Source of the DNA: Haliotis cracherodii | Taxonomy: Eukaryota | Reading direction: 5' to 3' | Length of the DNA stretch: 64,000 bases | NCBI RefSeq assembly: GCF_022045235.1 | Contig: NW_027266264.1 | Coordinates: forward strand, 38,006,001-38,070,000 | Part shown: positions 23,692 through 62,009 of the stretch, in pieces | Position numbering within the stretch: the first letter of the stretch is position 1 | Layout of the letters: the number at the start of each line of letters is the position of its first letter | Program-made: the position numbers and the translations under genes | Notes under the pieces: model-generated | The model's database searches: none | What the model was told of the DNA's origin: nothing | What the model saw: only the letters and a program-made list of their open reading frames with translations

Positions 23692-23932
23692 TTACATAGT
23701 CGCATGATTTCGTCTGCCTCTCATCCTTGGCAGACGTGGTCGGAATTTGTCTCTGATTGCATCACTGTTGGGAATCCCCGCTAGGGAACTGGCAGAATCC
23801 GGTATCGTTTCCAGGTAATCTGCCCACTTGAAATGTTGCGCATCCCGGAAGCAGTATTGGACTTTGAGATTCTCCTTCCGATATGTGTAATAGAGGATGT
23901 AGAAATTACACATCTCGTCAGTATTGGTTGCG
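23692..23932 (-). CDS. PHM: PHM terminal exon 12 (ATNTDEMCNFYILYY...RRNHATM*)
   Basis: cctccag| acceptor; DEMC motif; TAA at 23694-23692. Confidence 0.94.
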
Positions 23933-26900: not shown

Positions 26901-29900
26901 TGACAGCTGCACCAATGAAGCATGGTCTGAACTCTCCTTTTTCTTATACATACTCACGTTTTTGGACTCTTTCTTCGATATTGACACGTGCAGATAAATT
27001 TAAACACTAAAATAATCTCCCAAGCATTTAATTTCTTTAGGGCGTAGAAATAATTCCTGTAACATTTTACTTGTCATGTAGAATATGTCAAAACTGTCTC
27101 GTGAATGTTTCGATTAATACGTAGCTCGTGTATAAATGGAGCCAAAGGCAGACATTCTAATTGATTCGAGTCTCACTTTCACTGTAAGGGCAATTGCTTA
27201 CAGTCCGCTGCACTAACACAATGATGTCCACCACCTACCTGTGGCAACTGGGGGGACATCCGTCCTAGCTCTGTCCAGTGGCCGTCTCTAATCCGGTAGC
27301 CAGATGTTACTAAACCTGAGGCAAGGACATGCATTGTATTAAAGTTTCATGACAAACTAGTGCGATATATTCCAGGTGCCCGTTCCACAAAGCGATCTTA
27401 GGGTTACGAACACTTTGTTGCTAAGGTAGTACGACGCCCCCTGGGCCCATTTGCACAGTTACAATCGATCTTAGGCGCCTACAATCAATTCCACAATCAC
27501 CATACAGTTGTCCTATTCCACTGGCACAAACCGATCTTGGCGCGATTGTAAGACGGCTTAGATTTAATTTCGCTGTCTTAGCCTACAATGGCTTTGTTTA
27601 AGTGGATGGCGATGGCAGTCTAATCCTAAGATCACGATGTTATAAAATATTTGCAATAATTGTAGCGATAAGCTTGTTTTGTGTTTGTGGGCCCTAATTA
27701 TTTCCAGGCTGCGATGATGTATCGGGAACATTGTAGACACTGATCTACTCCTGCACGGACGGTGTATGTATATACATATGTTTACAAGTGGTCTGATGCA
27801 AATCCTATTATTGTAGCAGATAATTGGGTTTTTTAATTCAGATAACTATTGATGAAACTGTTGGATTTCATCTAGAGGGTGTACGAGAACAGATATCGCG
27901 CTGGTTTCGGTGTGAAGACAACCTTGATCAATGTGATTTCAGCCGTCGGTTATAAAGACTGGTCCTCAATATCAGTTCTAACACCACCTGGAAAGCCTGA
28001 CCGTGTTCGCCAGCTTTGACCCCTCCCAACACCCAAATAGAAGTGCTGGTACTTCCTCGCCCCGGAGAGCCTGGAAGACCTATGTGGTAGAGCTTACCTA
28101 GGTTATGCGAGTGCGTCCTATAGCCTACAGGGAAGATAGTGTAACTGTCGTAATCGCAGGCACTTTCCATGTGGAATTCTACCAAAAGAATCTTGAATTG
28201 TGACAACAGCAGAATCATATTACTAAATTGGTTAACGAGGACATGTTTGATATTTATTAATGATGGCATATTAATGGAGCTGAATGATATGTAATACACC
28301 AGGCGGTAAGTTTAGATGATTCATTACAACACAATTGTGTATACAATTGGATTAAAGTATTTAAACACCAATGGATATTATGAATAAACCTGATTGAACG
28401 AGTATTTCTTTTTAACCGTAAATGTGTGTTTTCTTTAAAGAAATTCAACCAACCTTGCCTTTGAGGAGGTATGTAGCCAGTATCTGCTAACACGTAGAAA
28501 CCCGCTTGCTTCGGTTGTCTGAATCCAAAACATGTTTTTGTTGACATTTTACAACTGTATAAACGATGGTCATTTTTACCCTCTTGGCTGTTTGCCTTGA
28601 AATCTTAATTACATGAAGTTTAATACCACATGAACAAAAGGGAAGAGGGGCTTCGTGAGATAAACAATGTTCATTCAGACAGCTGAATACTCTGTTCTGT
28701 TTGTCACAACCATCGATACCTGGCGGGACATAAAAGTAATAGAATGCATCGTTTCCTTAATTCTACCTGTAGTAGCTCTACCAATGCTGTCACTTACGGT
28801 GTGTAGGTCATGTGCAGTGTTACCCCGGAGTCATCCGTCAGATAACCTGTAAGTATACAATGACAAATACATGTAGTGTACCTTAGTGGTAAGTACCAAG
28901 TCAACAGGAGTAAAACGAAACTATTAACTTAATACCTGATAAAAGCTGTTCGAGAATTCGATATTCTGGGTTTCCTGGTTGACATAGAATTGGTTGGTTG
29001 GTTGGTTTGTTGTTTATCGCCGCACTCAGCAATATTTCAGCTATTTGACGGCGGTATGTAAATAATCGAGTCTGGACCAGACAATCCTGTGATTAATATC
29101 ATGAGCATCGATCCACGCAATTGGGATCGATGACATGCATCAACCAAGTCAGCGAGCCTGACCACCCGATCGCGTCAGTTGCCTTTTACGACAAGCATGG
29201 GTTGCTGAAGACCTGTTCTACCCCGGATCTTCACGGGTCGGTTGACATAGAAACAACCTAGCTTCATCACTATCTTACCCGGGAATCGCTGCACATAGTG
29301 TAGCTGTATGACGATATAATCGATCCCTGTGTCCCCTCCAACGCGGAACCCCACACCTGGAACAAACACGAACTGGTGAAGCGACAGCGTGGCACAGTAA
29401 TTGTCCTGGCTATAAGGAAAAAGCGATGCCAGTAGACGCAATCCCATCTTGAACCATTCTTATAAGGGAATTGAAAAATGAAATGTTTTAAGAGCCCTAC
29501 CATGGTTGTATCATACGTCTAATGTCTAATACGTATCTATGTAATTAATATATGAGCCACATTAATGACTTACACCTGTAACGTTGTTAGTCTGTATCTG
29601 TATTCACATGCTTCAAATAGAATCTGCACATACACCGAGCACCAACCATGAGGCCATATCATGCCGTTTAAATTCTGCCCGGGGTTAAATGAATGAGCTG
29701 GCTATAACGGCGCGTTGAACAGTAAATGATGGTGTGCTAGTATACGTGGACGGTAAGCCCAGAATGATGCAGGTCTTCCATCTTTACCATTGTGGTGAAC
29801 CAGTGAACGCGGGTGCTGACAAGTTTTGTTTGTTTGTTGTTTAACGCCGTTTAACTCATCAATATTTCAGGTATATGACGGCGGACTGTACATATTCGAG

Positions 29901-32900
29901 ACTGGACCAGACAAGCCAGTGATTTACATCATGAGCATCGACCCACGCAATTTGGAGACGATGACATGCATCAACAAAGTCAGCGAGCCATATCATTACG
30001 TATTTTGGCCATGGGATCGAACCAAAGATCTTCCGCTCTCTGGACAGACGCTCTATCCACTAGACCACGTGGTCGGTTCTGAGTAGTAAGTGGTACTGAA
30101 TGTGCATTCGCTCTGTTTGTAGAGGACGACGAAATGGCAACTGTTCGACATAAAACTTTGAGTTCATACGACGGTTTGTGACAGCCATCGACGTTGAAAT
30201 TTAAGACTTCGAAAGCCGGGTTTGAACATGCCTCTGTGACATTCTCAATAGTGTGGGCATATGACGATACACGCGTGTGATGTATTACTTTCAGGGAGTG
30301 TGGGCATATGACGATACACGCGTGTGATGTATTACCTTCAGGGAGTGTGGGCATATGACGATACACGCGTGTGATGTATAACCTTCAGGGAGTGTGGGCA
30401 TATGACGATACACGCGTGTGATGTATTACCTTCAGGGAGTGTGGGCATATGACGATACACGCGTGTGATGTATTACCTTCAGGGAGTGTGGGCATATGAC
30501 GATACACGCGTGTGATGTATTACCTTCAGGGAGTGTGGGCATATGACGATACACGCGTGTGATGTATTACCTTCGGGGAGTGTGGGCATATGACGATACA
30601 CGCGTGTGATGTATTACCTTCGGGGAGTGTGGGCATATGACGATACACGCGTGTGATGTATTGCCTTCGGGGAGTGTGGGCATATGACGATACACGCGTG
30701 TGATGTATTACCTTCGGGGAGTGTGGGCATATGACGATACACGCGTGTGATGTATTACCTTCGGGGAGTGTGGGCATATGACGATACACGCGTGTGATGT
30801 ATTACCTTCAGGGAGATTCATAGATGGTGCGTCAAGTGCCCAGGCAAACACTACTTGGCGTTCTCCGTCTGAACACACTGAGCGCTCCGAGCGGTCACTG
30901 GTCTCCCCACAAGACCTGAAACACAACACGTCAGAATTAAAAAAAAGTAACATGTTTCAGAAGCGGTCAACAACCGAGGTACAGCGGGCCCTGTAGTCCA
31001 AAATATACTTCTCGCTAGGTCAGTAAAGCAAAGACGTCTACATATATAAGATCATTGTCTCAGGAGCCATATGGATCCTTTCTGAGTGCATCATTATGTA
31101 ACCTTGGATGTCCAAACAGTCCGTATTGACAGTAGTTCCTGATTCATGAGATGTTTGACTACAATTTCATCAATAGTTATCTGAATTAAACATATAAAAA
31201 ACACATCCCATGGATGAATAACAATGATAAATAATATGTGCATTTATAATGCGCCAGATTCCATTCACCAAGTGGATGCTCAAAGCTCTACACTATTATT
31301 ACCCCGGTCAATGGATCAGTGAGCACTCGATTCTATTCTCAGCTCGCTGGGGAGTATACAACCCAAGCTGCCTGTGAGGCGCTAGAAAGATAACAGTCAC
31401 ATCACCATCTCTTCCTACCGGGTACCCATTCACTGATGGGTGAACAGAGACATATAACGAACAAAATCAATTGCCACGTGACACCAAGTGCGGTACGTGT
31501 GCTTCAGTGTGAGACAGGACCGAAGCCCTTGGAACTTCCAAGTTCGCCATTTTAAAATGACCATTCACTGAGAATAATTCTGAATTGCTTAATACACCTA
31601 GGATTTCTATCTAATCTGTCTGTCCGTATACAAGAGTAGTCAACTATAGTAGTGAACTATCAAAACAATAACATGGAATTGGAATTCGGAACTGTGTATT
31701 TTTGTCAGGCACAAACCAGTATGAACCCAAATGAGTCAAAATTAATCTTATTGCTATGGAAACAGAAACAATATAAATTCTAAAAATCCCTAAATAGAAA
31801 GAGGCACCCTGACAACCTGCTCTTTGTGTGTCTATAGTTTCAATAAAGAGTACCTGTTAGTTTTAGACATATGGTCCGGAGTCCAGACAAACACAGCACT
31901 ATGGACAGAATCAAAGTCACACTTGTTGCAATGGAAACAACAATATATGTTTTTTTAAATTACTAAATAGCCAAAGGCCCCACTTCAGACCTTAATTACA
32001 GAATTCAGAGAATAAAATAGAAAACAATGATTTTGAATCGAATGATGATATCGAGACGTACCAGTAGGGTCGCGTACTCCCGGGAACCTTGCATCCGTAC
32101 ACCATCAGATGATGTGCTCTGGTTCTGGAGGCGTGGGGGTCATACTTGACTGTACAGTAACAAAAGAGGGACATATTCTTTAAAAAAAACTATTTAATGG
32201 TACGTGTTTTTATTACATATCATTACTTATTTTTACAACGACATGATCATAGTTCTAATCTTCTTTATGAAAATCATCTTCATGAAACAATTTCGCGGTA
32301 TTGCATTATCCACGTAATGTACTTAATCATCTTAACGTACAGCGTGTTCGTCATGATTAAATTATGTTGATCGTGAATGCCAATCAGGATCATATTTGAA
32401 AAGTGTTTGATAATGATAATGTTACGACATGGAAACAGTGAGTGCATTTGTACCTATGTATGCCGTTCTCCTGTTTAACCTCACCGCATGGCAGAGTAGA
32501 GCGTCTGCCTTAAAACAGAACATTATCATATAAAGATGTATTTTTATAGATGGGTTATACTGATTCAAAGACCGAGACATATAGAATATTTAAATTCCCA
32601 ATAGACATTAACAAATGAAGCCCTGTTGTTCCCAGATATATTCACGGGAATATGTTACAGGCTTCAGAGTTTATTTGATATATTCATGTCAATCATTTCC
32701 GTCAGTATGATCCCTCGACAAAGAAACGCTTGTCATTATTCTCAAGCGTGAAAAGCATATTTCACATTACTCACACAGACAATATCTTCAAGGGTTCAAC
32801 ATATAACGCGTATAATATATACACGTGTGAATGAACTGTCTATACATAATCAGTTAGAATGAATGAATTGCATTAAATAATTACATTCCATTACGATAAG

Positions 32901-45487: not shown

Positions 45488-46687
45488 TTATGTTTCTGAA
45501 AAGTATGTGTCTCTGAATAATGGCATATGGATCTCCCGTAACAGATATCCGTGACTATCAAAAAAATATAGTTGCTGTTCATGGGCTCCTCTGCAGACAA
45601 CACACACCTCGTTAACCAACACCCGCAAAATTGGGAAAGATGTGTTATATTGCCATGGACAAATATGTACTTGTCTCTTGGAGGAGTTCCAAATGTTATG
45701 GAATATCAAAGTCCTATTACTGTAAACGACAGCTATCATTTCATGAGTGACGAAACTTGTGGCCATATTACCAACGACAGTAAAGTTCCATATCGGTCGG
45801 GGAATTATATATCCCGTATTTTCATATTTCATGAGAAATACTTCAATCGCAAACTGTCTCTTTTCTAAATGTCTACAACTATAATACAGCAAGGAATGGG
45901 AGGAGCGATGACCAGCGAAGGACAGGTCACAGGCTTTGTATTTCAAAGAAGCCACAGTTTTCTCACAGATGTCATCATTAGGAGTGTCCAGCTTTAATGT
46001 CTTCAGCCAGTAGGACTTGCCCTGCTGGACACGGTAGTACAGATGCATGTGTCCCCAGTCAACGTAAACATCTTCAAATGGCAACCGTCTGGCTACGTCA
46101 GTATAGTTTCCAGTGAAAAAAATCTGTCTGAGAAGGCTGTTGTGTTTTTTGGTGAAAAGCACGTAAAACATACATCGTGTTGATTCGATGAAGACATTTT
46201 TTATCCCCTCACAACGGATTTGAACAATGTCCACAAATGTCCCATTCATCTGTTTTGTATCATAAGCCTTCATAATGCAGGTTCTCTCGTGTTTGATGAC
46301 ATAAACATGCTGTTTCGATAGGGTTACGGAACCATATGAGGTCGAACAATTCCACTTGTATTCAGGACTGGTTTTGCGCAGACCCGAATCGTTGTCTTCT
46401 TTACGTTTGTATTCGGTCACATGCCAATAAGAGACGATTGTATGGCTTGCGTCGGACACTTCCTTTGTGAAAAGAAGATAAGAATTGGCCGTCTCTTCTT
46501 GGGTCGTACTGTTGTCTAGCCTTAAGATGCAGGCGTTCTGGGTGTTGACCGTGCTGTCTACTAAAACACCCGTGCAAGATGGAAGAGTGGAACATTCAAC
46601 TGCACATTCAACATGTGTCCTTTTTGCACCACTAACGATGCTACAACACAAAGTTATGAACAACAGCTTCATGAAAACGAGAGACAT
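45488..46687 (-). CDS. Uncharacterised secreted protein, 399 aa (signal peptide, PAN/apple-like Cys motif, probable divergent beta-propeller), paralog 1
   Basis: Uninterrupted 1200-nt non-repetitive ORF; N-terminal hydrophobic leader; ECAVECSTLPSCTGV..C motif; collinear similarity to 55805-57022; several NxS/T sites. Confidence 0.85.
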   Translation of the reverse strand: MSLVFMKLLFITLCCSIVSGAKRTHVECAVECSTLPSCTGVLVDSTVNTQNACILRLDNSTTQEETANSYLLFTKEVSDASHTIVSYWHVTEYKRKEDNDSGLRKTSPEYKWNCSTSYGSVTLSKQHVYVIKHERTCIMKAYDTKQMNGTFVDIVQIRCEGIKNVFIESTRCMFYVLFTKKHNSLLRQIFFTGNYTDVARRLPFEDVYVDWGHMHLYYRVQQGKSYWLKTLKLDTPNDDICEKTVASLKYKACDLSFAGHRSSHSLLYYSCRHLEKRQFAIEVFLMKYENTGYIIPRPIWNFTVVGNMATSFVTHEMIAVVYSNRTLIFHNIWNSSKRQVHICPWQYNTSFPILRVLVNEVCVVCRGAHEQQLYFFDSHGYLLREIHMPLFRDTYFSET

Positions 46688-48301
46688 GTTTGTAAAGCGC
46701 TGGAAATGCTCTATGTGAGATACATATACGGCGTGAATGCACTTTGTTCATTCGGGTGTGGTGCTTAATATGTTTTGACCATAAAAAGATATGTACTTGA
46801 ATTTAGTTATTAATGTTATTTCAAATGTTAAATGGGTGTTCTACCGTGTATGCCTTCATTAGATGTCCAGGAAAAAGTTGGAATGGATGTATTCTCAGGT
46901 GTTCTAGACATTCCGAAGATATGTCGTTAGAAATAATTCATGATTGTCCTTTTCAGATGAAGGACTGGCTTTGTAGGATGGTATCCCATCGCTGTCAAAT
47001 ATAGACAGTTCACATATCTTACTTACAAATGAAAGTGACGCTTTGTCAGTTGGAAAATTGACACATTTCTTTTGCAGTTCAGCAAGACTTGTAAAAAAGG
47101 TGTGCCAGTTTAAGTACTTTGTCCATGTTAGCGATTGTACCAGGAATTGCATAAACTCTCTAAAGAATGTGCAAACGTTATCTGAATTAGTTTTTGTGTT
47201 GGAGAATGGAGTTATTAGGGTAGTATTGTTATTGATTGAATTGTACGTGAGGAGGTCACGGCCACTGAGACGTGTCACATAAGCACTGGTGTCACGGGGA
47301 CCTGAATCTCAGCAAATGCAAGGCAACTTCAGAGTTGGAGTTGGTTGAAGTGCCTTCATTGACATTAAAGTGGAAGTACATATTCAAACCCCACCATCAA
47401 AACAAAACAGGTTCTCTCATGAAAGTAACATTTGAATAGTAACTTTTCATAATCTTAAAGTATACACCGAATATGATTAACCTATAATATGGTAAAATCC
47501 TTTCACTATCTATCGATACGGGCTTTGTTGAATTATTCCATACATTATTCACTTTGTACACTCAGCTGCGTGCTGCGAGATCAATTAGATTTGGATTGTT
47601 CGATTCATTCGGTCGTGAAAAGTTCAAATGAATCTGGTGAAGAAAGCTTCCTTGTACTTTTGGAATACTTAAGACATATCAATCTTTCGAAATCATTAAT
47701 CTTAACGACATCAAAATGTCCAAATTGAAATTCTGCAGTGTTGGGTGGGATGATGTTGGGATTTTAAATAATTTTAAAATAAAACATCTGGCAATGGAAT
47801 ATTTGACTGGCTGACAGTTCCTTTATTGCCATCGGTCTGAAGTATAATTATTTTTTTCACGCATTTTCTGGGGAATTTTTTTTCGATAAAATCCCAGCCG
47901 TTTGAGTTAACAAACACTACCTATCAAAGCAACATTATTGAACAGGATTCCACCCGGAAAATGCGGCATTAAATAGTAATGTATCAGTCCTTACATCATA
48001 TACTACTTCAGATAAGATAGAGGTACTGAATAGGATTTTAGTGTATGGCAGGATTAAATCATACTGTTGTATGTTTCAATGTTCGATACAGTTTTTAAAA
48101 CTTTTTTATGCTAAGCAACCATCACAAGCATTTTAAAACAAAATACTGAATACTCGAGACTCACCTACCCTTAAAGTCATGATTTAACACGCACGCACCT
48201 ATGCACACACTTTGCATCTTGAAATTGCAATTATCTCAATCTAGATCATCTTCTGTAGATCCTAGTATATGTTTAGAAATACAAATGATGGTGAACACCT
48301 C

Positions 48302-48310
48302 CACACACCT

Positions 48311-48369
<59 letters not shown>
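48302..48369. repeat. (CA)n microsatellite
   Basis: Direct reading. Confidence 0.97.
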
Positions 48370-48370
<1 letters not shown>

Positions 48371-48515
48371 TGTTGTCTTGAGTTTACATAAAGTGTGTCA
48401 CAGGGTTGTGACACGAATGCCTCGGAGGCTCAACCTTTTTATCGTTGCAGCAATTATTGATATTTGAGGAAAAACCGTTGTGCAGCGGATTCTTACAAAA
48501 GTTTGCACATTATTT

Positions 48516-50150
48516 GACTGAGAGAGAGGATCTGTCAGTTTACATCCTGACTGAGTAGTGAGTCGGGGACAGAAGGGGAGGATCTGTCAGTTTACATCCT
48601 GACTGAGTAGTGAGTCGGGGACGCAGAGAGAGGACCTGTCAGTTTACATCCTGACTGAGTAGTGAGTCAAGGACTGATGGGGAGGCGCTGTCAGTTTACA
48701 TCCTGACTGAGTTGTGAGTCGGGGACTGATGGGGAGGCGCTGTCAGTTTACATCCTGACTGAGTAGTGAGTCGGGGACGCAGAGAGAGGACCTGTCAGTT
48801 TACATCCTGACTGAGTTGTGAATCAGGGACTGATGGGGAGGCGCTGTCAGTTTACATCCTGACTGAGTAGTGAGTCAGGGACTGAGGGGGAGGCGGTGTC
48901 AGTTTACATCCTGACTGAGTTGTGAGTCGGGGACTGAGGGGGAGGCGCTGTCAGTTTACATCCTGACTGAGTAGTGAGTCAGGGACTGAGGTTGAGGCGG
49001 TGTCAGTTTACATCCTGACTGAGTAGTAAGTCGGGGACTGAGGGTGAGGCGGTGTCAGTTTATATCCTGACTGAGTAGTGAGTCAGGGACTGAGGGTGTG
49101 GCGCTGTCAGTTTACATCCTGACTGAGTTGTGAGTCGGGGACTGATGGGGAGGCGGTATCAGTTTACATCCTGACTGAGTTGTGAGTCGGGGACTGAGGG
49201 GGAGGCGCTGTCAGTTTACATCCTGACTGAGTTGTGAGTCGGGGACTGAGGGTGAGGCGCTGTCAGTTTACATCCTGACTGAGTTGTGAATCGGGGACTG
49301 ATGGGGAGGCGGTGTCAGTTTACATCCTGACTGAGTAGTGAGACGGGGACTGAGGGTGAGGCGCTGTCAGTTTACATCCTGACTGAGTAGTGAGTCGGGG
49401 ACTGAGGGTGAGGCGGTGTCAGTTTACATCCTGACTGAGTAGTGAGTCTGGGACTGATGGGGAGGCGCTGTCAGTTTACATCCTGACTGAGTAGTGAGTC
49501 GGGGACTGATGGGGAGACGGTGTCAGTTTACATCCTGACTGAGTAGTGAGTCGGGGACTGATGGGGAGGCGCTGTCAGTTTACATCCTGACTGAGTAGTG
49601 AGTCAGGGACTGAGGGTGTGGCGCTGTCAGTTTACATCCTGGCTGAGTAGTGAGTCGGGGACTGAGGGTGTGGCGCTGTCAGTTTACATCCTGACTGAGT
49701 TGTGAGTCGGGGACTGATGGGGAGGCGGTATCAGTTTACATCCTGACTGAGTAGTGAGTCAGGGACTGAGGGTGTGGCGCTGTCAGTTTTCATCCTGACT
49801 GAGTTATGAGTCGGGGACTGATGGGGAGGCGCTGTCAGTTTACATCCTGGCTGAGTAGTGAGTCGGGGAATGAGAGAGAGGATCTGTCAGTTCACATTCT
49901 GACTGAGTAGTGAGTCGGGGACTGAGGGTGTGGCGCTGTCAGTTTACATCCTGACTGAGTAGTGAGTCGGGGACTGAGGGTGAGGCGCTGTCAGTTTACA
50001 TCCTGACTGAGTAGTGTGTCGGGGACTGAGAGAGAGGAGCTGTCTGATTACATTCTGACTGAGTTGTGAGTCGGGGACTGATGGGGAGGCGGTGTCAGTT
50101 TACATCCTGACTGAGTAGTGAGTCGGGTACTGAGCGGGAGGTCATGTCAC
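48516..50150. repeat. ~47-bp minisatellite (~35 copies)
   Basis: ctgtcagtttacatcctgactgagtagtgagtcggggactgatggggaggcg repeated. Confidence 0.96.
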
Positions 50151-50321
50151 TTCAACAGTTGTATATTTTGGATTGAACAATACTAAATGCATACGGAAAA
50201 GTCGTGAGAAAGCATAAAAAAGTATTGTCATATTTAAACATTCGCACCTCTTAAGGAGATAGAACAATTGACAATTCTACCCACTCTGGATTACCTGAAC
50301 GCGAATACATCACTGCCGTCA

Positions 50322-50483
50322 GGGGCAGTGGGCTGACCGAGTGGTTACAGCGTTCGCTCGTCACGCTGAAGACCCGGGCTCGATTCCCCTCATGGGTACA
50401 ATGTGTGAAGCCCATTTCTGGTGTCCCCTGTCCTGATATTGTTGGAATATTGCTAAAAGCAGCGTAAATTTCAGTTCACTCAC
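50322..50483 (+). mobile_element. tRNA-derived short SINE
   Basis: ggggcagtggg..gagtggttacagcgttcgctcgtcacgc..ggctcgattcc..gctaaaagcagcgtaaa..cactcac. Confidence 0.87.
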
Positions 50484-51278
50484 GACTGTCATATCATTAC
50501 TCTCCAAGTTGGTGTTCATTCTAAACATTTGACCAAAATACAAATTCATCGACACCAAACTATTCATACGCGGGGGTACCATAAAACAATCATTGGAAGT
50601 TATTTTGAAACAAAACGTCTTGTGCGCAAAAGAATTGCAATAAAAATTTATGGCACTTACAAAGAGAAATTTGAAAGTTACCTGTTCAAATACATCAAAT
50701 GTTCCCACACTTATTAGATTCTTGTCGCAAATTATAAACGATATTTTCAAATAAAACAATTAGCTACACAAGATTAACTTGACCAATTGTTTCGTGTTCA
50801 TTAAAGTAGGATACAAATCTAATGTTCTTATTTTTGTTTGTTTTAATTCTCATATGTTTTCTTTCTTTGTTTGGTCAAATAATTTCATTTAGTGGATGCA
50901 TGTAGTCTTATGCCGCTGTCCGCAAACATCGAGTTTTATCTCATCGTTTTGTGTTCTTCTGTTTGGTCAAAAAATAATTGAGCAATAACGGTGAGTGACT
51001 TTGCGAACGTTGAATGACGCCGCAGTCACCACCAAGAGCATCAGGCTACTTATTACTCGCAGTCAGACAATCCGCGCAGCCTAAACACCCGGTTCTCTAT
51101 AACAGTTCTTACCACAGGCATTTTACATTTGGACATTGTGTCCTTTGGGTTTCAAAACGGGGTATACGCAATAATTAAATCTGTTGAGTACAAGTACCAT
51201 TACAAATTATTATCCTCCAAAGATTTTCATAGCAAATGTGTAAATGTATTCAATGTCCAGTGGAAATATGTTTCAGTA

Positions 51279-51607
51279 NNNNNNNNNNNNNNNNNNNNNN
51301 NNNNNNNNNNNNNNNNNNNNNNNNNNNNNNNNNNNNNNNNNNNNNNNNNNNNNNNNNNNNNNNNNNNNNNNNNNNNNNNNNNNNNNNNNNNNNNNNNNNN
51401 NNNNNNNNNNNNNNNNNNNNNNNNNNNNNNNNNNNNNNNNNNNNNNNNNNNNNGTGNNNNNNNNNNNNNNNNNNNNNNNNNNNNNNNNNNNNNNNNNNNN
51501 NNNNNNNNNNNNNNNNNNNNNNNNNNNNNNNNNNNNNNNNNNNNNNNNNNNNNNNNNNNNNNNNNNNNNNNNNNNNNNNNNNNNNNNNNNNNNNNNNNNN
51601 NNNNNNA
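51279..51607. other. Assembly gap (N run)
   Basis: About 330 N with an isolated gtg. Confidence 0.99.
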
Positions 51608-51976
51608 ATGACAAATTGTATTGATTTCATCAAAGGCAAAGTAGTGATCAAACATATATACTAAAATAAAGTCTTCATTAATCACAGAAAATATTAAATG
51701 TCAGTGGGTAAGGAGGTGTGGAACAACAAGCGTGGGATACCAACTTTGTCAAAGTATATTTTGAATATAAGAACAACATGCTAAATAGGAAAAATTGTAA
51801 ATCCATAACACTGACGATCATGAATTTTGTCAGTCATGAGAAATTCAATCCGGAATATTGTCAGTCGTGCACATTGTCGATCCGTCCGTTTTCACTGAAT
51901 GGTGCTTGCGTGTTTCAATTAAACTGAAAGAACATGCGAATCGGGACGCCATTTGACACTTGACCTTTTGACATGA

Positions 51977-52146
51977 GTTAGTGAGTGTGTGAGTTTGGTT
52001 TTACGCCGCTTTTAGCAATATTCCAGCAATATCACGGCGGGGGACACCAGAAATGGGCTTCACACATTGTACCCATGTTGGGAATCGAACCCGGGCCTTC
52101 GGCGTGACGAGCGAACGCTTTAACCACTAGGCTACCCGGCCGCCCC
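51977..52146 (-). mobile_element. tRNA-derived short SINE, near intact
   Basis: 13-bp TSD ccttttgacatga (51964-51976, 52147-52159); A box tagcctagtgg, B box ggttcgattcc. Confidence 0.92.
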
Positions 52147-52734
52147 CCTTTTGACATGAACTGCTTCTGGTTTGGGTATACTTCTAAGAATACGTCAGTA
52201 ATTTCGGAACTATCTCTGATTCAATTATGTGCACTGAAACACAGTGTCACTGTGCTTTTACTTTTCTTGCATACGTAGTGCCTTGGCACATTTCAGATTA
52301 TCAAATACGCTATTGCAATCCCTGCTTTATTTTTCTTATATGATTTACACTGCCATAGAACAAAAGGAGACCTACTAAGCTGATATATTCCCAATAGTAC
52401 ACAGGTTAATATACAACGTCAACGCCAGAGAATGACGTGTCTCGATTATCCTCGAAACAGATTCCAGTGGACTTAAAAGGCAAAGTAACAGCGAAAAGTA
52501 TATAGATAACTGAAAATCAGTGCTGATAACAGGCGTTGGCGAAATGGGTAAACATTTCATCTCTGACAATCCTTACAACATCATGTTGTCCCTGTATTCC
52601 CTGTAATAAGAGTCGCATACATCTCGGCGTACAAAAATTCAACATCGAGTTGTTGCAGTAGCTTACTTTTCACTGATGAATCGAAATCTTTCAACAATGG
52701 TCAAAGAGCCCTTCCACTGACTTTAACACTTTAA

Positions 52735-53200
52735 CTAGAAACTAAAGGGACAATTGTAACCACGTCTGTTTTGTGTTTAGATATATTAAAAAGATTCAGA
52801 GTAACCATATGCTATCCACAAGACTGTATGACAAGGATGACTTCAACTTTCCAATAGTCAACTTTCTCTTTAATTCGAGCAATAATCCAGCAGCACCAGC
52901 TTTTTGTGTCTACATTTCACAATAATCGAACATGTTCTTTCTACAAAGATTTCAAAGGCCCTACAACTCACTATTCATGACCTTGGTAAAGCTTCCAACA
53001 CGTTTATGGTGAACATCTTGTGAACATTTCCAACTTTAACGCATAAGTGATCAAAATGATATGTTATGCAATTCCGTATTTCATCTTATCCTCCCATTGT
53101 ATTTTTCAGATGAACATTTGACTTGCCTTTGTATGTGTGTGTGTGACAGTGTGGCAGGACACACTCACCTTGTCGCGAACATCTGGTATCATCACTATTC
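52735..53200 (+). mobile_element. Penelope-like element 3' RT remnant (related to 40595-41710)
   Basis: LDI...RLYDKDDFNFPIVNFLFNSSNNPAAPAFCVYISQ; 3' segment gcaggacacactcacctt...aacatctggtatc resembles 41665-41708. Confidence 0.75.
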
Positions 53201-54008
53201 CGTCCGTTGTGCGATTTCGGCTTTTCCTTATCAACTAGTTTTGAAAGAGGAAGAGTCATAGTTTAGGCTGGGGAGCCTGACAGGAAGCCGTTATCGAGAT
53301 GAGATCGTGATGCGTGCTGTCCTTCCTTTTCTTGCACAAAATCTATACATGATGTTGTTTCCGTGTATATTAATTTGAAAATAGTTGTTTGACCATTTGT
53401 TTATAATTATATCCATTATTTGTAGATGACACAAATGTATTATTATTTCCACCTGGCTAGACCTGAGTAATATTCTACACCACCGTGATACATGACGTCC
53501 TTGGGAATCCAGACACTTGAATGGCCCTAGATGCAGATGCCTAAAGAACAGCGGTGGTTCAACTAGTACGTACAATACGCGTTAGAACAAACTTAATAGG
53601 AAGGCTGACATGGCGCGCTATCGCCAAATGTGTTTCCTTGTAAACTGAATACTTTATCAAAACATATCCAACAACGAAGCAAATTGAAAATGTGAGCACT
53701 TTGTTTTTAAGGTGTATTTTTTTTACGCATACCACATCAAAAGGAAAATTGTCAACCAGGAACATTGACAACAAGCATGAAATACTCACATCCCCCGCCA
53801 ATATGACATGTCGGGTTGTGTGCAATGCATTAGCTCCTGTGAACTATGCTCACTGGGCCTTTTTGTAAATGGCCTAATTGCAGCACTAAAAAAAGTTATT
53901 GCTGGTGTTGTTTTTCCATCTGCAGTTTATGATAGAATATGTAACTGAATTTGTAATGAGTAAGGATGAGACATATGTACGAACAACTTCTTTATTACAA
54001 TTAGGAGC

Positions 54009-54043
54009 GATGGTTTCGGTGTAGGTTCTAACACCGTTATCAA
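54009..54043 (-). ncRNA. Minimal hammerhead-ribozyme-like motif (U3-A8 core variant), Penelope-type
   Basis: TTGATAA-C-GGTGT(tagaacct)ACACC-GAAAC on minus; stem III and stem I degenerate. Confidence 0.4.
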
Positions 54044-54194
54044 GCAAGTGAAGTACAGAGCATGGTTGACAAGAATATATAGTGTTTATACAGTTGAGTA
54101 GGTTTAAGATCAGTTACACTGTTGTATTTGTAATGAGTTGTGTTTCAACTGACACTTTTGGAGGGACATACACTCAAGCAATGCAGAACTTACC

Positions 54195-54963
54195 AACAAG
54201 AAAAGGAAATGTATTCAATACTGTGAGATGACATTATGTGCCAAGTTTGGTTGCCATTGAAACTCGAAAAATATTTATTTTTTGAAACCCAAATTATCAA
54301 AGGGCACCAGTTCACCACTAGACCTATCTATGTGCCAAGTTTGGTGAAGAAATATAATACGGTTTTCAAGATCTGCTCCGGAAACGAGGACTACCGCCAT
54401 TTTCAGTCTAAATAAAATTCGTTGACATGGAAACTCAAAACATTTTTTTTTTAAATCCCAAACTATCAAAAGGCACCAGTTCACCACTAGATCTATCTAT
54501 GTGCCAAGTATAGTGAAGAAATATAATACGGTTTTCAAGATCTGCTCCGGAAGCGAGGACTACTGCCATTTTCAGTCTAAATCAAAGTCGCTGACATGGA
54601 AACTCGAAAAAAATAAAATAAAATAAACTCCACACTATCAAAAGGCACCAGTTCACCACTAGACCTATCTATGTGCTAAGTTTGACGAAGAAATATAGTA
54701 TGGTTTTCAAGATCTGCTCCGGAAACGAGGACTATCGCCATTTTCAGTCTAAATCAAAGTCGTTGACATGGAAACTCGAAAAAATAAAATAAAAATAAAT
54801 CCTAAACTATCAAAAGGCATCAGTTCACCACTAGACCTATCTATGTGCCAAGTTTGGTGGAGAAATATAGTACGGTTTTCAAGATCTGCTCCGGAAACGA
54901 AATGTGACGGACGGACGGCACCCATTCCTATATCCCCCTTCCACTTCGTGGCGGGGTATAATA
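54195..54963 (+). mobile_element. Helentron-associated (HINE/DINE-1/pearl-like) non-autonomous element with ~178-bp internal tandem array
   Basis: aacaag start; ~3.7 copies of a ~178-bp unit; (GGAC)n microsatellite; 3' hairpin ccc..ccacttcgtgg..gggg then tataat. Confidence 0.72.
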
Positions 54964-55804
54964 ATGAGTAATGTCAGTCATGAACATTGTCATTCCAGGA
55001 CTGTCACGAACTCTACCAATGCGGAAGATTGGCTATCTCCCACATTGCCAGTCATGAATATAATTAATTTCCCTTAAAGGTACTTCAATGTGCTTCGGCA
55101 ATATGTGCACTGGTGTCTGCTTTATCAGCTCCAATACGCCTGATACTAAATTCCAAATGTTGCATACAAGGTACAAACAATCTTCCATACAGTAGTCATC
55201 CTCAACACCATAATGATGGGTAATGTCAAATGGATTTTGTATGAATTTTTATACATGTAACCTCATTTATGTGATATTGTCGCACATTTTAAGCTGTCAT
55301 AATTAATCAAACTATATTTGTGAAAAACAACAAGAAAATTAAACATCCGATTGTGATGATTATTCATATGGTTATATTGCTTGATTATTTGTGTTCCTGT
55401 TTTCATTGTGACAGTAACGCTGTTCTGAAACGTAATAAGACAGAACAAATATTTCTTTTTAGTACATTTCATTCGCATTACGTATATATACACGTATATA
55501 AACCAACTTAACATTAAATACATGTGATCAGATGCGTCTTTTGCAAAATTATCGTCTTGATCGTGTATACAATGTAGATGATTCAGGTTGTAGATATATA
55601 TTATACACGGTTTTAGCAATGAAACACCACACTAAATAGGATATTGGTCAGTAATGGAACACTCCTGCTGCTAGTGCAGTGTTTTACTAATAATAACCAT
55701 TCGAGGTCATCATACTATACATGACTGAGAACACTGGAACATGCACAGAATATGGTAAGGTAATCTCACCAATAGAGAAAAAACATGTTTAGTAGCTGTA
55801 CATA

Positions 55805-57022
55805 TTAGTCGTGCGCCCCTTTCTTGACTTGCGGTAAAAAGACATTTCCGACAAAAGGAATAACAATCTGTCGCCGTATGTCGCCATCAGGACTGAATAC
55901 AGTTATCTCACGTTCATTTTCATTCCCACATAGGATGTAGAGTTCGCCATTCCAGATATCTACCTCAGGGTGAAATGTAAATCTTGAATCACAGGTGTAA
56001 ATGTATCTCATGAAATTCCTTTGAGTGTCGAAGAAGGAGAGTGTCTTGTTTTCAAATGTTATTGCTATCACTTCTTGTGTAACAAAGGCCAGTTTTATTT
56101 CTCCTGCATTTAGTCTTAGAAACTCCCTGACACTGATGGTATCTGCATTACCATGATGTATCATGAACAACTGAAAGGCGTACATGTTATCACTCAGTGA
56201 CCTATAGGTGCAATACAGCAACACATCTGACAGTTGATGTCCAACGAAACAATAGGCACTCGTGGGCCATTCCAAACGGGCCAGACTAATGATCTCGTTG
56301 CCATGTGTCACTATTCCAAACTGCACAGAATGCTTATCTGTATAATCTGTATAACAGACATAAATACGATTTCGTTTCCAGTGAACATAGATGGAATGAA
56401 ACCCCTTTCCACTGGCAATACTTGTCCACTTTGAACCATCAAAGTGACTACTTTCAAGACTAAACGTTTCAAGCCATGCATAAAGCATGCATTCGGAGAG
56501 ATCTACAAAAAGGAACGCGATGTCCTTTGGATAAACAAACAGTGATGTCAGTTGCAGGTCGTTCTTACTTGTATCATAAACATCGATGAACCATCTCATA
56601 CTCTTCTTTCTGGCGACGACGATGTGGTGTGTGGACATGTTTATGGTCCCATGTTTGGTATTACATGTCCATTCATTTCTTCTTGTACTTTCCAGGGGTT
56701 TTCCAGTTTTCATGTTGCTTCCTCTCGCGTCATTTCGGAGTTTCCAACGAGACTCCAAAAGTGTATATGTTAGTTTGGAAGACGTCTTGACAAAGAACAA
56801 ATGCTTTTCTGGCACAAGACTCTCGTTGTTAGCAAGAAGTGTACTATCGTTGCAAGAACAGATACATCCCCTATGTCCCCTTAAATCATGTAAGATCCTT
56901 ATACACGATTGAGTTAAAGGGCAATAAACAAAACAGTCTAGTTTCATTCTCGTTCTGCTGAGATAAACAACTTGTATACTATGTAAAATTGTAACACAAA
57001 TGATTGTATTCTGCAGAAACAT
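55805..57022 (-). CDS. Uncharacterised secreted protein, 405 aa, paralog 2
   Basis: Uninterrupted 1218-nt ORF; hydrophobic leader; DCFVYCPLTQSC..C; shared blocks with paralog 1 (WxCxT, YDT, CMxY, YVxW, FxGH..S..LLY, FVTxExIA, NxTL, G..xRxIxxP). Confidence 0.85.
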   Translation of the reverse strand: MFLQNTIICVTILHSIQVVYLSRTRMKLDCFVYCPLTQSCIRILHDLRGHRGCICSCNDSTLLANNESLVPEKHLFFVKTSSKLTYTLLESRWKLRNDARGSNMKTGKPLESTRRNEWTCNTKHGTINMSTHHIVVARKKSMRWFIDVYDTSKNDLQLTSLFVYPKDIAFLFVDLSECMLYAWLETFSLESSHFDGSKWTSIASGKGFHSIYVHWKRNRIYVCYTDYTDKHSVQFGIVTHGNEIISLARLEWPTSAYCFVGHQLSDVLLYCTYRSLSDNMYAFQLFMIHHGNADTISVREFLRLNAGEIKLAFVTQEVIAITFENKTLSFFDTQRNFMRYIYTCDSRFTFHPEVDIWNGELYILCGNENEREITVFSPDGDIRRQIVIPFVGNVFLPQVKKGAHD

Positions 57023-57920
57023 TCTTCAAAGCTGTGTAAACAGTATGTCGGCGATGAATCAAACACTCTTCTCTGAGGCAGAATTGTGCACAACCAAACA
57101 TGAAATAGCCAAATGAAAAGGAAAAGTATATATTTTAGGAACACAGAAAAATTCGGTCAGTATTAATTATTGAAGCTTTTTCGCAAATTGAATTTCGCAC
57201 ACTATAACTTAACCAGTTTTTTGCGAACCCAGGGTACTCAATCTAAAAACATACATTGAAATAATACATTCTTATCCTTCATACACTCGCACGCCTACAG
57301 ATATATAAGAAATAGCATGCACGCATTGCTTCAAATGTCACTGACTTCTCAAACAGAGATAACTATCACGAATAGACAAAAAGACAGGCTGCTCACAGTC
57401 GACATTTGTAAATACACAAGTTAAGTATCAGATACTAATGGGTTGAGCTTGAGCTTCCTTCACAGAAACAATGAACTTGAAATTATTTTATTGAAACAAT
57501 GGTTCTCAAGACAGTAACCTGACTTTACATCATTGGGTGCAGGGTGGGGGGTGGGGGGGGTGGGGGTGGGGGTGGGGGGGGGGGTGGGGGGGGGGGAGGA
57601 GATGGGATGTCCAAGTCAGTTCGGTAAAAAGTGGGCGCCGCCATTGTTGAGAGGCTACCGAGGATAACCTTTATAACGGAAATGAACTGTGTTGCTGCTA
57701 TCTAACGTCCTGGATGTCAAATATGACACGTGTGTTTGACCGTCGGTGACAGGGAAGCCAGTTGGGGCATGCAGTGCAAGAGACATTTTAGTATCCCTTA
57801 GTACAGGTGATATGTTGTCAGCCATGTGGATGTTTATGAAGTCTTTTTAATCTGTCAGATTTGTAAGGTTTCAGTAATCGTCTACTACTCATATGTAGGT
57901 GTTTTAAAGTTTGTCATGGC

Positions 57921-58902
57921 CACAGTCCTACACAACCCCCAACTAAAAATCCATCAAAACATCTTCATCATCACCGACTCCCTCAGTGGACTCCAGGCCC
58001 TAAAAAACAAAACAACACTAAAAATCGCCCCAACTTAATTAACCAAATACTAAAAAGCTCAAATGAACTAACTAAAGCAAACAAACAGATAGAATTCGTT
58101 TGGATACCCGCGCATGTAGGAATCTATGACAACGAACATGCAGACCAAGCAGCCAAACTATCCCTAAAACTCACAGAAGTAAGCCTATGTCTACCAATCT
58201 CAAAATCAGAAATTAAAAGCATAACCAAACAAAAGATCACCAAAAAATGGCAAAATAATTACAAAAACTCAAACTGTCAGCTTAGGAAAATACTTAAAAA
58301 CCTCTAATTAAACCCAAAGTCCTACACCCATCCACAAAAAAATCGACAGGGCCATAACCAAACTACAAACAGGTCACTCCAAACTAAACAACCATCTAAA
58401 AACTTCTTAAATACACGCAACAGGCAAATTACATTGCAACCAAGAAGAAACCATCGAGCACGCACTCATACATTGCAAACACTACCAAATACACAGAACG
58501 CACTCCAAACCACACTGAACTTAAACTCCGGGTTTACACTAGACAAAATCCTAAGCCCACTTATCAACACACAAAACTTTAAAGCCCCAGGCATATACCT
58601 CATTAAAACTGATCTAATTAACCGCATCTAATCCTCAAATATCCCAATAAATGAATAAATAAACCAACAACTAAAAAAAACACATACAACTCCCTTAGTC
58701 TCTCCCCCTTCTGACATCCATTCCAACTCTGCAAATTTCAAAACTCCTTTATAAGCAACCCCTTAAACCCCCTGCAGGGGTTGCACAAATCCCTTCTTTC
58801 ATTTCGGCAAATAAGTTTACATTAAATGGCCTGGCGGGCCCGTGTGCGAAATACGCTTATAGTCGGAAAGCGCACGTTAAATCCCTAACGTCAGTCAGTC
58901 AG
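57921..58902 (+). mobile_element. 5'-truncated I/Nimb-group LINE (RNase H, zinc knuckle, 3' UTR, (GTCA)n tail), decayed
   Basis: IFIITDSLSGLQAL, IEFVWIPAHVGIYDNEHADQAAK, ITKLQTGH, ETIEHALIHC; tail cgttaaatccctaac(gtca)3. Confidence 0.85.
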
Positions 58903-59122
58903 ATGAAAATCAGAAATGTCTCACCCTTAGCCTAGCTAATAAAGCTTAACCCGTGCCACCACTACACTTCACAGATATAAAATACCTGAGGAATATCACA
59001 TTTGAATTACTGATTTCAATTGTGGAATATGGGATATAATTTCATCTAGGCAGTTCAATGCATCCTCTTCATTCAGACCAGACCACATCAGAGCCAGTGT
59101 TCTTGCAAGGGTTCTAATTAGA

Positions 59123-59262
59123 CTGGACTCTCGATGACTGGACTCTCTATGACTGGACTCTCTATGACTGGACTCTGTATGGCTGGACTCTCTATGACTG
59201 GACTCTCTATGGCTGGACTCTCTATGACTGGACTCTCTATGACTGGACTCTCTATGACTGGA
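59123..59262. repeat. 15-bp minisatellite
   Basis: gactggactctctat repeated ~9 times. Confidence 0.95.
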
Positions 59263-60274
59263 CATGGCATCAATCTCCCAAATAATTATTACTCCTTATA
59301 ATGTTATTGCAAGAATCAACAGAATTGTTGTTGACATTGTTATGCTGCTCTGTTGTAAAAACTTTAGAAGGCTAGTCATTTAATATTTTGTATGACATTT
59401 ATTTCGGAATTAATGTAAAAGGTTAGGCCAAGCATGCTTTTTGTTTTAGCTAGTGTCGTTTGACCTGATAACACGGTAGAGACAACACTTACAATGTGTA
59501 AGTTCTATCACCTGATGGCCATGATGCTTATGTTTTGTGAGTCTTAGTGGCAAATCCTAGTAGCTGCATTTCGTGTACTCACGTTTGTTCACGAGATATC
59601 TCATGACAGATTCTCTTACAGATTCTGGTATTGCACTTTTGTCACTTGCACTTGAACTACTTCTAGCTCATGTATATCTCTACCAATAACTAATGTAGTA
59701 TGTTAATACTAGTTTATTATGTACATGGTTATATTCATTACAATTAATGGTAGGCGCTAATTCAGGACATATTTCCTGATTCAATTATATGTGTTGAAGC
59801 ACAGTGCCAATAAACCTTTGCGTGAATTATTAATGCCAAATTTAATATTTCAATCATATGCTTTTGATTATTATGTGTTGATTTTGTAATTTAATAATAA
59901 AAATCGATTTAAATCCATAACTTTAATAAGTTGCACATTCAGAATTATCACATCAAAATGGAGTTATTCTATTCAAATGTATTGTTATTATGAATGTAAA
60001 CCCCTTCCTGCATACATAATTCCATAAATATTACAACATGGTCACATGACCACGTATTTACCCTTATGAAAGGGATGAAGTCAAACTTAAGTTTCTCCTC
60101 AGACACTAATCTGACAACTTAGAGGCACATAGATTGCAAATTCATATTTTGACCATATCAAGTATATTTCTTATGAAATACACCATTGCAACCACCATTG
60201 TGAATTTCTTATATATATAATTTACATTAAGGTCTACTTGCGTAATACATTATGAATACACTTTTAACCAATTA

Positions 60275-60685
60275 TTACTTATCACTGTCATAAAATATAT
60301 ATTGATCTCTCATATCATTACAGCCTTGTGTTGTCCTTTTAGCTACCACCTGTAATAAGAGTTGCTCATTGTCTCGGCTTACAACATGCTCTGACGAAAG
60401 GGGATTCTCTGGACACACATGGCGCAGAAATTGCCTTCCTGGTCTAACACCACACATCACGATCGCATCTTGGCTGGGGAACCTGACGAGAATTCCGCTG
60501 TCCAGACGAGATCGTGATGTGTGGTGCCAAACCAGGAAGGCATTTTCAGCGTCATAGCTCATTGCCTCAGGTTGCCTTAGTGTGTACCGAGGTCCTTGCA
60601 CAGAACAGTGAAAATGTGTTGTCCTGACTACCCTGTTCACCAGATGGCATTCCAATAGAGTACATCTTGGATGAACTGGGGCGAC
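60275..60685 (-). CDS. Possible exon or fragment of a distant member of the secreted family
   Basis: Open frame after ttgcag| acceptor-like site; CTLLECHL...FHCSVQG resembles YTLLESRW...WTCNTKHG; QPEAMSYD..FLVW is propeller-like. Confidence 0.3.
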   Translation of the reverse strand, partial: VAPVHPRCTLLECHLVNRVVRTTHFHCSVQGPRYTLRQPEAMSYDAENAFLVWHHTSRSRLDSGILVRFPSQDAIVMCGVRPGRQFLRHVCPENPLSSEHVVSRDNEQLLLQVVAKRTTQGCNDMRDQYIFYDSDK

Positions 60686-61142
60686 CTGCAACCACCACTA
60701 TTGGCCTTTACCTCCATGAGTATTAACAGAAATAGCTTGATTCATGCGAGGTTGTTGATAGAATAGAAGGTGTTACTCTTTCTTTTGCATCAATTTGACA
60801 AGCTAAACTTTGCAAAGCTAGTAAATAAATTTCTGAGTTCTTTTATTGTCAGGTGAAAGGTAAGAGAATCAACCGAGGTGTGTCTGTTATTGGGACTTCT
60901 TCGACTTGATTGTGGCTGGCCAACTAACGGTGATTGATGTGTTACAGTATTTTTTTTTTAATATAGTAAGATGGTTTTAACGTCACTTACAATAGTAAGT
61001 TTAATTATACTACTCTAAGTTTGCTAAGCATCAAGTTTTGATGGTCTCAGAAATCATCCAACCAATAGAGATAAAAATATCCCGCTACACAATGATTGGG
61101 AAAAACCCCTTGACATACATTTCACGATGAACGGAGAGAGGC

Positions 61143-61220
61143 GACGTTTCGGTACAGATCCTTATACCATTGTCAGGGTATAAGGTACAACGGTATAAGG
61201 ATCTATGCCGAAGCATCGTC
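61143..61220. ncRNA. Inverted pair of hammerhead-like motifs
   Basis: Minus: CTGACAA-T-GGTATA(aggatc)TGTACC-GAAAC-GTC; plus: degenerate ACAA-C-GGTATAAGGATCTATGCC-GAAGC-ATC. Confidence 0.4.
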
Positions 61221-61421
61221 TTTAACGTCAACCTCTAAGGAAGCCTATCAAACAAAACAAATGATTTTTGTGTTTTTGCGTTCACTGTGACAGTATCTGC
61301 AACTTTGATAAGTTAATGATTTTCCTAAACGTCGATATATTTCGCACGAAAGGTAGTCGATTTTCAACACTATAATGAAACTGCTGAGATGTAATAATTC
61401 ACAACAAATATTTCTTTTCAT

Positions 61422-61782
61422 GGCATTACATATCCATTCATTTCGTCTTGTACTTTCCAGGGGTTTTCCAGTTTTCATGTTGCTTCCCCTCGTGTCATTT
61501 CGGAGTTTCCAACGAGACTCCAAAAATGTATATGTTAGTTTGGAAGACGTCTTGACAAAGAACAAATGCTTTTCTGGCACAAGACTCTCGTTGTTAGCAA
61601 GAAGTTTTCCAACGTCGCAAGAACACATCCCTATGTCCCCTTAAATCATGTATGATTCTTACTCACGATTGAGTTAAAGGGCAATAAACAAAAGACTCTA
61701 GTCTCATTCTAATTCTGGTGAGTTTACAAACCTGTATACTATACGGAATTGCAACACAACAGAATGCGTTCAACAGACACAT
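61422..61782 (-). pseudogene. Truncated pseudogene copy of paralog 2 (55805-57022)
   Basis: ATG at 61782; TGA replaces a Cys codon (TQS*); frameshift after RGHR; near-identical LLANNESLVPEKHLFF...RRNEWIC then homology ends; upstream flank also homologous to 57023-57125. Confidence 0.9.
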
Positions 61783-62009
61783 TCTTCAAAGCAGTGAAAA
61801 CAGTATGTCGATGATGAATCAAACACTATTTTCTGAGGTGTAATTGTACTCAACCAAACATGATACAGCCAAGTGAAAAGGACACGTGACACATGCATAT
61901 AATGTTTTTAAAAGCTTAAAATTCCAACAAGAAAATACGAGGAGTGATATGCTCCTCTCCATTACCCACAATATCAAACATTGATGTTCTTGACAAATTG
62001 AATCGTGCA

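Follow-up and report, generated by a model that had tools for sequence, protein, structure and literature searches.

A window of 64,000 nucleotides of the genome of Haliotis cracherodii (contig NW_027266264.1, positions 38,006,001 to 38,070,000) contains two related single-exon genes, A and B, and a broken third copy, C (Table 1). We interpret A and B as members of a dispersed family of secreted proteins, predicted to join a PAN-like N-terminal part to a degenerate propeller of the LDL-receptor type with a variable top binding face, most likely for recognition of microbes or parasites; we give this reading as a whole a probability of roughly 0.55. That the family constitutes a diversifying binding repertoire is the part that we hold with good confidence. 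That its targets are non-self, a reading that we place ahead of gamete and mucus or shell roles, is more tentative, with chances somewhat short of even; recognition of non-self is what best fits a large repertoire of paralogs together with a positively selected binding face. The family is real and apparently undescribed, no description having been found in the literature searched, in which most subscription journals are lacking.

The original prediction, made from the letters of the window alone, had called two minus-strand single-frame genes of 399 and 405 aa that are collinear at about a quarter identity. The coordinates and lengths are borne out, and BLASTP aligns A with B collinearly, with 88 of 383 residues identical (23%, E 2e-30). 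It had also given both proteins a signal-peptide-like leader, a CxxxCxxxxxC...C motif and no transmembrane anchor, and these too hold: by hydropathy each has a hydrophobic N-terminal stretch (best 11-mer 2.81 in A and 2.10 in B, the leader of B being the weaker), no membrane-like segment was found by that measure after the leader of either (no 19-mer above 1.3), and the motif is present in both. Among the 24 full-length members from this genome that were listed (one with an internal stop), 23 have an N-terminal hydrophobic 10-mer of at least 1.79, also by hydropathy, and we infer from sequence that the family proteins are secreted.

The body of each protein is homologous to the YWTD propellers of LDL receptors. 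An AlphaFold2 model of B, built on a 24-sequence alignment, has an all-beta body at residues 117-395 (predicted local distance difference test, pLDDT, 74-95 by block over 121-400); residues 1-114 are unresolved in this full-length model (pLDDT below 50). Read from the strand list of the model, its 26 strands are predicted to form an N-terminal hairpin and six blades of four strands each, with the final strand completing blade one, so that the propeller suspected earlier, for which an AlphaFold model had been the suggested check, is now predicted for B. In a fold search with this model the YWTD structures score highly: ApoER2 at Z 17.6 (root-mean-square deviation, rmsd, 3.7 over 254 aligned residues), ROS1 at 17.6, LRP4 at 17.4 and LDLR at 17.2, and NHL structures at no more than 15.5. 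The family profile A4 matches LRP6 in the YWTD register (E 8.8e-7), with family strands 1-2 aligned to 'AVD...LYWTD'. Eighteen non-family matches to the profile were scanned: 13 carry PF00058, two carry DUF5050 only, and the remaining three either match none of these at E 1e-4 or belong to a different type; 14 of the 18 reach the cut-off, 13 with Ldl_recept_b and one with DUF5050.

The resemblance is a degenerate one. PF00058 matches neither A, B nor any family member scanned, and among 17 family proteins taken from public sets the pattern [YF]W[TSA]D occurs once, in one of them. When A or B is used singly as the query, sequence searches of Pfam and the PDB return nothing at cut-off. The blades had been likened to degenerate YWTD or NHL blades, and of these the YWTD kinship stands but the NHL one does not, PF01436 having no match at E 10 or below in A or B and none at E 1 or below in the other members scanned. 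B ends about 10 residues past the closing strand, with no EGF domain after the propeller, no LA repeats and no transmembrane segment. The conserved columns among 28 members are four cysteines (C120 in 27 of 28, C178 in 24, C344 in 21 and C365 in 24), together with strand-end aspartates, glycines and aromatic residues, and no histidine; the cysteines are consistent with two family-specific disulfides, C120-C178 and C344-C365.

Twelve single-protein searches of the H. cracherodii genome (1.18 Gb in 80 contigs) identified at least 36 loci on 12 contigs, a lower bound since only the best candidates were scored. Twenty-three are intact single frames of 360-491 aa, four have an open propeller and no recognisable N-terminus, and nine are broken; these classes are our reading of the frames, and one broken locus (C8) is a weak match (E 0.009). 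Members are placed singly or in small tandem groups and are 10-22% identical to B. The tandem cluster of the original prediction is thus present at this locus, but its scale was under-called, the family being dispersed over some 36 loci; the birth-and-death evolution that had been proposed for it is seen genome-wide, with many broken copies. Net charge ranges among paralogs from -31 to +46, a spread which, as computed from sequence, suggests different ligands. In a tree of 34 propellers A and B group with P0122 (support 99/97), which is 23-25% identical to each of them and has no close counterpart in this genome; the deep branches are long and weakly supported. One member (L089:2873-5455, on G000:C9) carries a repeat stalk of about 500 residues of Gln, Asn, Pro and Thr before its propeller, and no leader was seen in its frame.

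A profile search of 1.84 billion representatives yielded 121 matches, of which 16 were classed as family members. Ten family members were looked up and two are named, both as 'uncharacterized protein' of Haliotis rubra: LOC124271608 (XP_046562715.1), which is 58% identical to the 33.5-Mb copy on C67, and LOC124254206 (XP_046544054.1). Both belong to the same family as A and B, in other subfamilies, and have no annotated domain or function. Word-indexed protein searches, a method that misses distant relatives, returned only P0001 or the query itself, and an exact-sequence lookup in the protein collection found none of 10 family proteins from this genome. Also among the profile matches are P0054, P0059, P0089, P0102, P0106 and P0107, small and apparently secreted animal YWTD proteins that might serve the family as outgroups of a less degenerate kind.

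Amino acid change in the family is concentrated in the loops that map to one face of the propeller. Loop 2-3 of propellers lies on the top face, where most of them bind, according to PMC2716378. The top face was defined as the loops between strands 2-3 and 4-1 plus two residues of each strand end, with bottom and core classed from the model; this rule was fixed after the changes in B itself had been viewed by eye, and B is outside the six pairs used for codon analysis. In 14 close pairs, 256 of 1244 top positions differ (20.6%), against 121 of 1294 at the bottom (9.4%) and 125 of 1077 in the core (11.6%); top exceeds bottom in all 14 pairs, and at every one of the 12 top junctions change is more frequent than in the adjoining parts (permutation p 4e-5). 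We estimated the ratio of non-silent to silent rates (dN/dS, omega) for each class with a codon model of our own in six non-overlapping paralog pairs. Omega is 1.91 for the top face (p 3e-6 against 1), 0.53 for the bottom (p 3e-4), and 0.77 for the core; the N-terminal part, taken together with the ends, has 0.40 (p 2e-6). The top value is 1.72 (p 0.016) with silent rates free in each class, 1.82-2.09 on dropping any one pair, 1.98 away from gaps, and 2.38 (p 5.5e-4) in the two intact pairs. The top face is under apparent positive selection, as mapped through the model, and the fast evolution that had been proposed is seen genome-wide. Whole-gene omega lies at 0.6-1.5 where the paralogs of a pair are recent and at 0.23-0.63 where they are older, with none of 12 pairs significantly above 1.

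That last count is one of several observations that weigh against our interpretation. When codons with more than one base change are removed, a conservative step in that the codons dropped are those that changed most, omega for the top face is no more than 1.24 (p 0.19); the higher values may thus owe something to multi-base mutations or gene conversion. Four of the six codon pairs include a broken or truncated copy, and the faces were mapped onto distant subfamilies through alignments at 10-22% identity. Top faces of propellers are variable in general, according to PMC2716378, and hence variability is diagnostic only if omega exceeds 1. A and B show just a slight bias of their own (top 4/98 versus bottom 3/93, and top 7/93 versus bottom 5/91), and the comparison of B with runs X1-X4 gives 24 non-silent and 6 silent changes, an omega of about 1.1 that is not different from neutral. 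As to the folds, TolB (Z 17.5) ties with the YWTD structures and Foldseek is led by Kelch-type designs mixed with LRP matches, so that structure alone leaves the propeller type unfixed and sequence decides; at the N-terminus the PAN match lies under the Pfam cut-off and the fold Z under 4. And no observation sets immunity above gametes or mucus.

The near-neutral value for B also bears on whether most of these genes are duplicates that have lost their function and are relaxed or in decay, their fast change being neutral drift. The whole-gene ratios of the recent pairs and the nine broken loci among 36 fit such decay, but the purifying selection on the bottom face and N-terminal part, and the lower ratios of the older pairs, do not, and we consider it improbable. 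Nor does the state of B agree with it: its frame is open and free of indels across 1218 bases in runs X1-X4, among 30 shared changes, and its flanks do carry indels. Runs X1-X3 cover gene and flanks evenly and are read as DNA; X5 covered repeats only. The counterpart of B, P0001, is 94% identical to it, and A has an intact counterpart, P0003, that differs at 12 of 394 residues.

The same data can be read as sexual conflict. Abalone lysin and VERL are diversified by such conflict, and A and B could be proteins of gamete recognition or of the egg coat, secreted to take part in the binding of sperm to egg. A binding face under positive selection would be expected of them, and the top-face excess is found between related-organism counterparts as well (74/698 versus 42/739 at the bottom, p 7e-4); the absence of the family from named proteins, the two H. 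rubra records excepted, fits a narrow expression. Against this, three dozen deeply diverged paralogs and many dead copies would resemble a repertoire more than a lock-and-key pair, and A and B differ from their counterparts at merely 3-6% of residues. We regard a gamete role as unlikely. Next in rank, and unlikely too, are parts of mucus, adhesive or shell matrix, in which faces of different charge would hold glycans, polyanions or mineral: the range of net charge and the one member with a long Pro/Thr/Asn/Gln stalk are in keeping with these, as are the PAN domains that PMC13425148 reports from some lophotrochozoan biomineral proteomes, but omega above 1 on a single face is not what a structural role would lead one to expect.

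The N-terminal part resembles the core of a PAN/apple domain. The N-terminal piece of A matches PAN_1 at E 0.029 and 14.6 bits, below the curated cut-off of 21.4 bits; the best whole-protein score is 17.7 bits, and two of 13 N-terminal pieces match at E 1 or below. A profile of the domain has a sole match in the PDB, to the apple domains of MIC4 (E 0.067). A model of the A domain (pLDDT 66) has a helix at 8-17 and strands at 21-27 and 36-40, and the top five of 48,161 chains in a fold search with it are all PAN/apple (Z 3.5-3.8, rmsd 2.9-4.3, 52-62 residues aligned); Foldseek with the same model finds no match at E 0.001. The four-cysteine core, CxxxC..C..C on a helix and hairpin, is present by sequence and model, and the PAN/apple-like core that had been proposed is weakly supported. 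The core pattern is found in seven of 28 genome members. These matches hint at a truncated PAN/apple core; the leader ends only a few residues before the helix, and A and B therefore do not have the first PAN strands.

Under our interpretation, single-exon copies would duplicate, diverge and often die, and duplication together with change on the top face would supply new specificities, each paralog having its own ligand. The C120-C178 disulfide may pin the N-terminal part under the propeller, at the site that EGF occupies in LDL receptors; that part, tied to the bottom face, would be held under purifying selection as the top face is driven to change, and its PAN-like portion could act as a constant anchor or as a glycan or dimer module. 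A bolder form, which we offer tentatively and consider rather less likely, is that the stripped-down LDL-receptor propeller is a germline antibody-like repertoire of abalone, in which dozens of paralogs with a constant PAN anchor, a disulfide-locked bottom and a selected top would each have a different microbe or parasite ligand.

The third copy in the window bears on the turnover of the family. The original prediction had noted a pseudogene copy, and copy C proves to be a broken, internally deleted duplicate of B: positions 61421-61882 match the 5' part of B at a DNA identity of 87% and are fused at 61421 to a match of the B 3' flank, which implies that the propeller part is included in the deletion. 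The junction is visible as a loose end in runs X1-X3, from a related organism, so the deletion is common to that organism. A possible distant fragment had been mentioned as well, but a search with family profiles in six frames, covering the window and flanks of 20 kb and 50 kb, detected nothing beyond A, B and C, the next-best score being 8.3 bits against 6.8 for reversed sequence; the open reading frame at 60278-60697 has no family or Pfam match. Tandem repeats lie between the family copies.

Table 1. Features of the window and its immediate surroundings (window positions unless stated otherwise).
Feature	Position	Strand	Description or basis
Gene A	45488..46687	-	Single open frame of 399 aa, with leader, PAN-like core, linker and predicted six-bladed propeller
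A leader, residues 1-20	46628..46687	-	Signal-peptide-like; hydropathy alone
A truncated PAN/apple-like domain, ~residues 22-90	46418..46624	-	C28/C32/C38/C53; PAN_1 match below cut-off, model, fold search
A degenerate YWTD-type propeller, ~residues 111-395	45503..46357	-	Alignment to B
Gene B	55805..57022	-	Single open frame, 405 aa; layout as in gene A
B PAN-like core, ~residues 25-95	56738..56950	-	C30/C34/C40/C53; alignment with A and other members
B predicted six-bladed propeller, residues 117-395	55838..56674	-	Cys pairs C120/C178 and C344/C365; AlphaFold2, fold search, conservation
Copy C, pseudogene duplicate of B	61384..61882	-	Stop at codon 40, 5-base frameshift, ~1.2 kb deleted, junction 61421
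Tandem repeats	48516-50152		52 bases
Tandem repeats	54247-54900		~170 bases
Tandem repeats	59091-59293		15 bases
Downstream PHM-like gene	23900-32505	-	Copper monooxygenase
Upstream PHM-like gene	G000:C1 ~38078300-38105484	-	Copper monooxygenase
DIRS-like retroelement pieces	4350-8700		RT/RNase H by Pfam
FLYWCH and MULE transposase fragment	18264-19163

The cluster lies between two tandem PHM-like genes. PAL is a six-bladed propeller, and this position would suit a propeller enzyme, such as a divergent peptide-amidating lyase (PAL) partnered with the PHM-like genes. Propeller enzymes such as PAL, paraoxonase and SGL conserve metal-binding or catalytic residues at the top of the propeller, but of 28 members at least 55% share just 17 columns, none of which is a histidine or an acidic residue of the top face. 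That face also varies more than any other part, and there is no NHL match. The other members' flank that was read, about 80 kb on contig C27, shows Fz-domain genes. We consider an enzyme of this kind very improbable. The two Fz-domain genes adjoining the C27 members (L008:4414-5349 and G000:C27:214295-215296) are near-identical and single-frame, and each encodes a secreted protein with two Fz domains linked by poly-Thr.

The HH, H, HxH and EMC motifs are all preserved in the PHM-like gene of the window; its first exon was not located, the exons found running from 32.5 kb down. The upstream gene has two similar copies of the EMC exon (73605 and 72316 on the window scale), which are possibly alternative last exons. 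Nesting of the family genes in a PHM intron was considered and largely rejected, the upstream gene ending outside the window and the exons of the downstream one lying from window position 32.5 kb down; a long first intron of the downstream gene may span the cluster. Of 25 PF01082 matches over the cut-off, 22 lie on contig C5 (~7-39 Mb), where exons for copper type II monooxygenases have greatly multiplied. The DIRS-like pieces of the window, in which we take one frame to be recombinase-like, have a near-identical copy at G000:C27:282-285 kb. A transposon origin of the family was rejected: no member has a transposon domain, and the reverse transcriptase (RT) and MULE pieces of the window are separate from the genes.

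Pfam fails to recognise the family, and most of its members lack annotation, even though copies number in the dozens and the signal of selection is confined to one part of the structure. This suggests an arms race at a defined binding surface. Abalone are a farmed and disease-hit group of animals, and these proteins are concrete candidates for abalone immune or gamete recognition. They would represent a reuse of the LDL-receptor propeller as a free, variable binder in an animal; an antibody-like repertoire, if true, would give molluscs a class of pattern-recognition molecule that has yet to be described.

The closest known systems are the YWTD (LDL-receptor class B, PF00058) propellers of LRP5/6, LRP4, ApoER2, LDLR and nidogen, which share with the prediction for A and B six four-stranded blades, closure by the C-terminal strand and an extracellular location. 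Unlike them, A and B have no YWTD motif, no PF00058 match, no EGF domain after the propeller, no LA repeats and no anchor; the family has Cys pairs of its own, one coding exon, many copies and a top face under apparent positive selection, and it is predicted from the model to act like a free YWTD binding propeller, not as an LDL-receptor family member. ROS1 and Sevenless have likewise degenerate YWTD-type propellers (Z 17.6 and 16.4), but these sit in very large receptor kinases, whereas those of A and B stand alone in proteins of about 400 aa. The PAN/apple domains of Sarcocystis SML-2, Toxoplasma MIC4, factor XI/kallikrein and the HGF N domain share the four-cysteine helix-plus-hairpin core, and differ in having the N-terminal strands; in many paralogs of A and B the core itself is lost or unrecognisable. 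Rotifer proteins in the ESM Atlas combine PAN with a propeller in a similar layout, unaligned and with a feature score of 0.80 (below 0.9, and matches there of 0.77-0.81 are leads only), but theirs is of the NHL type and that of A and B is YWTD-related. In mode of evolution the family is comparable to snail FREPs, bivalve C1q proteins, sea-urchin SpTransformer and the tectonin/tachylectin propeller lectins, diversified invertebrate recognition families with a demonstrated immune role: all are secreted and multi-copy, with birth-and-death evolution and a variable binding surface, as predicted for A and B, and all are built on other folds or other types of propeller.

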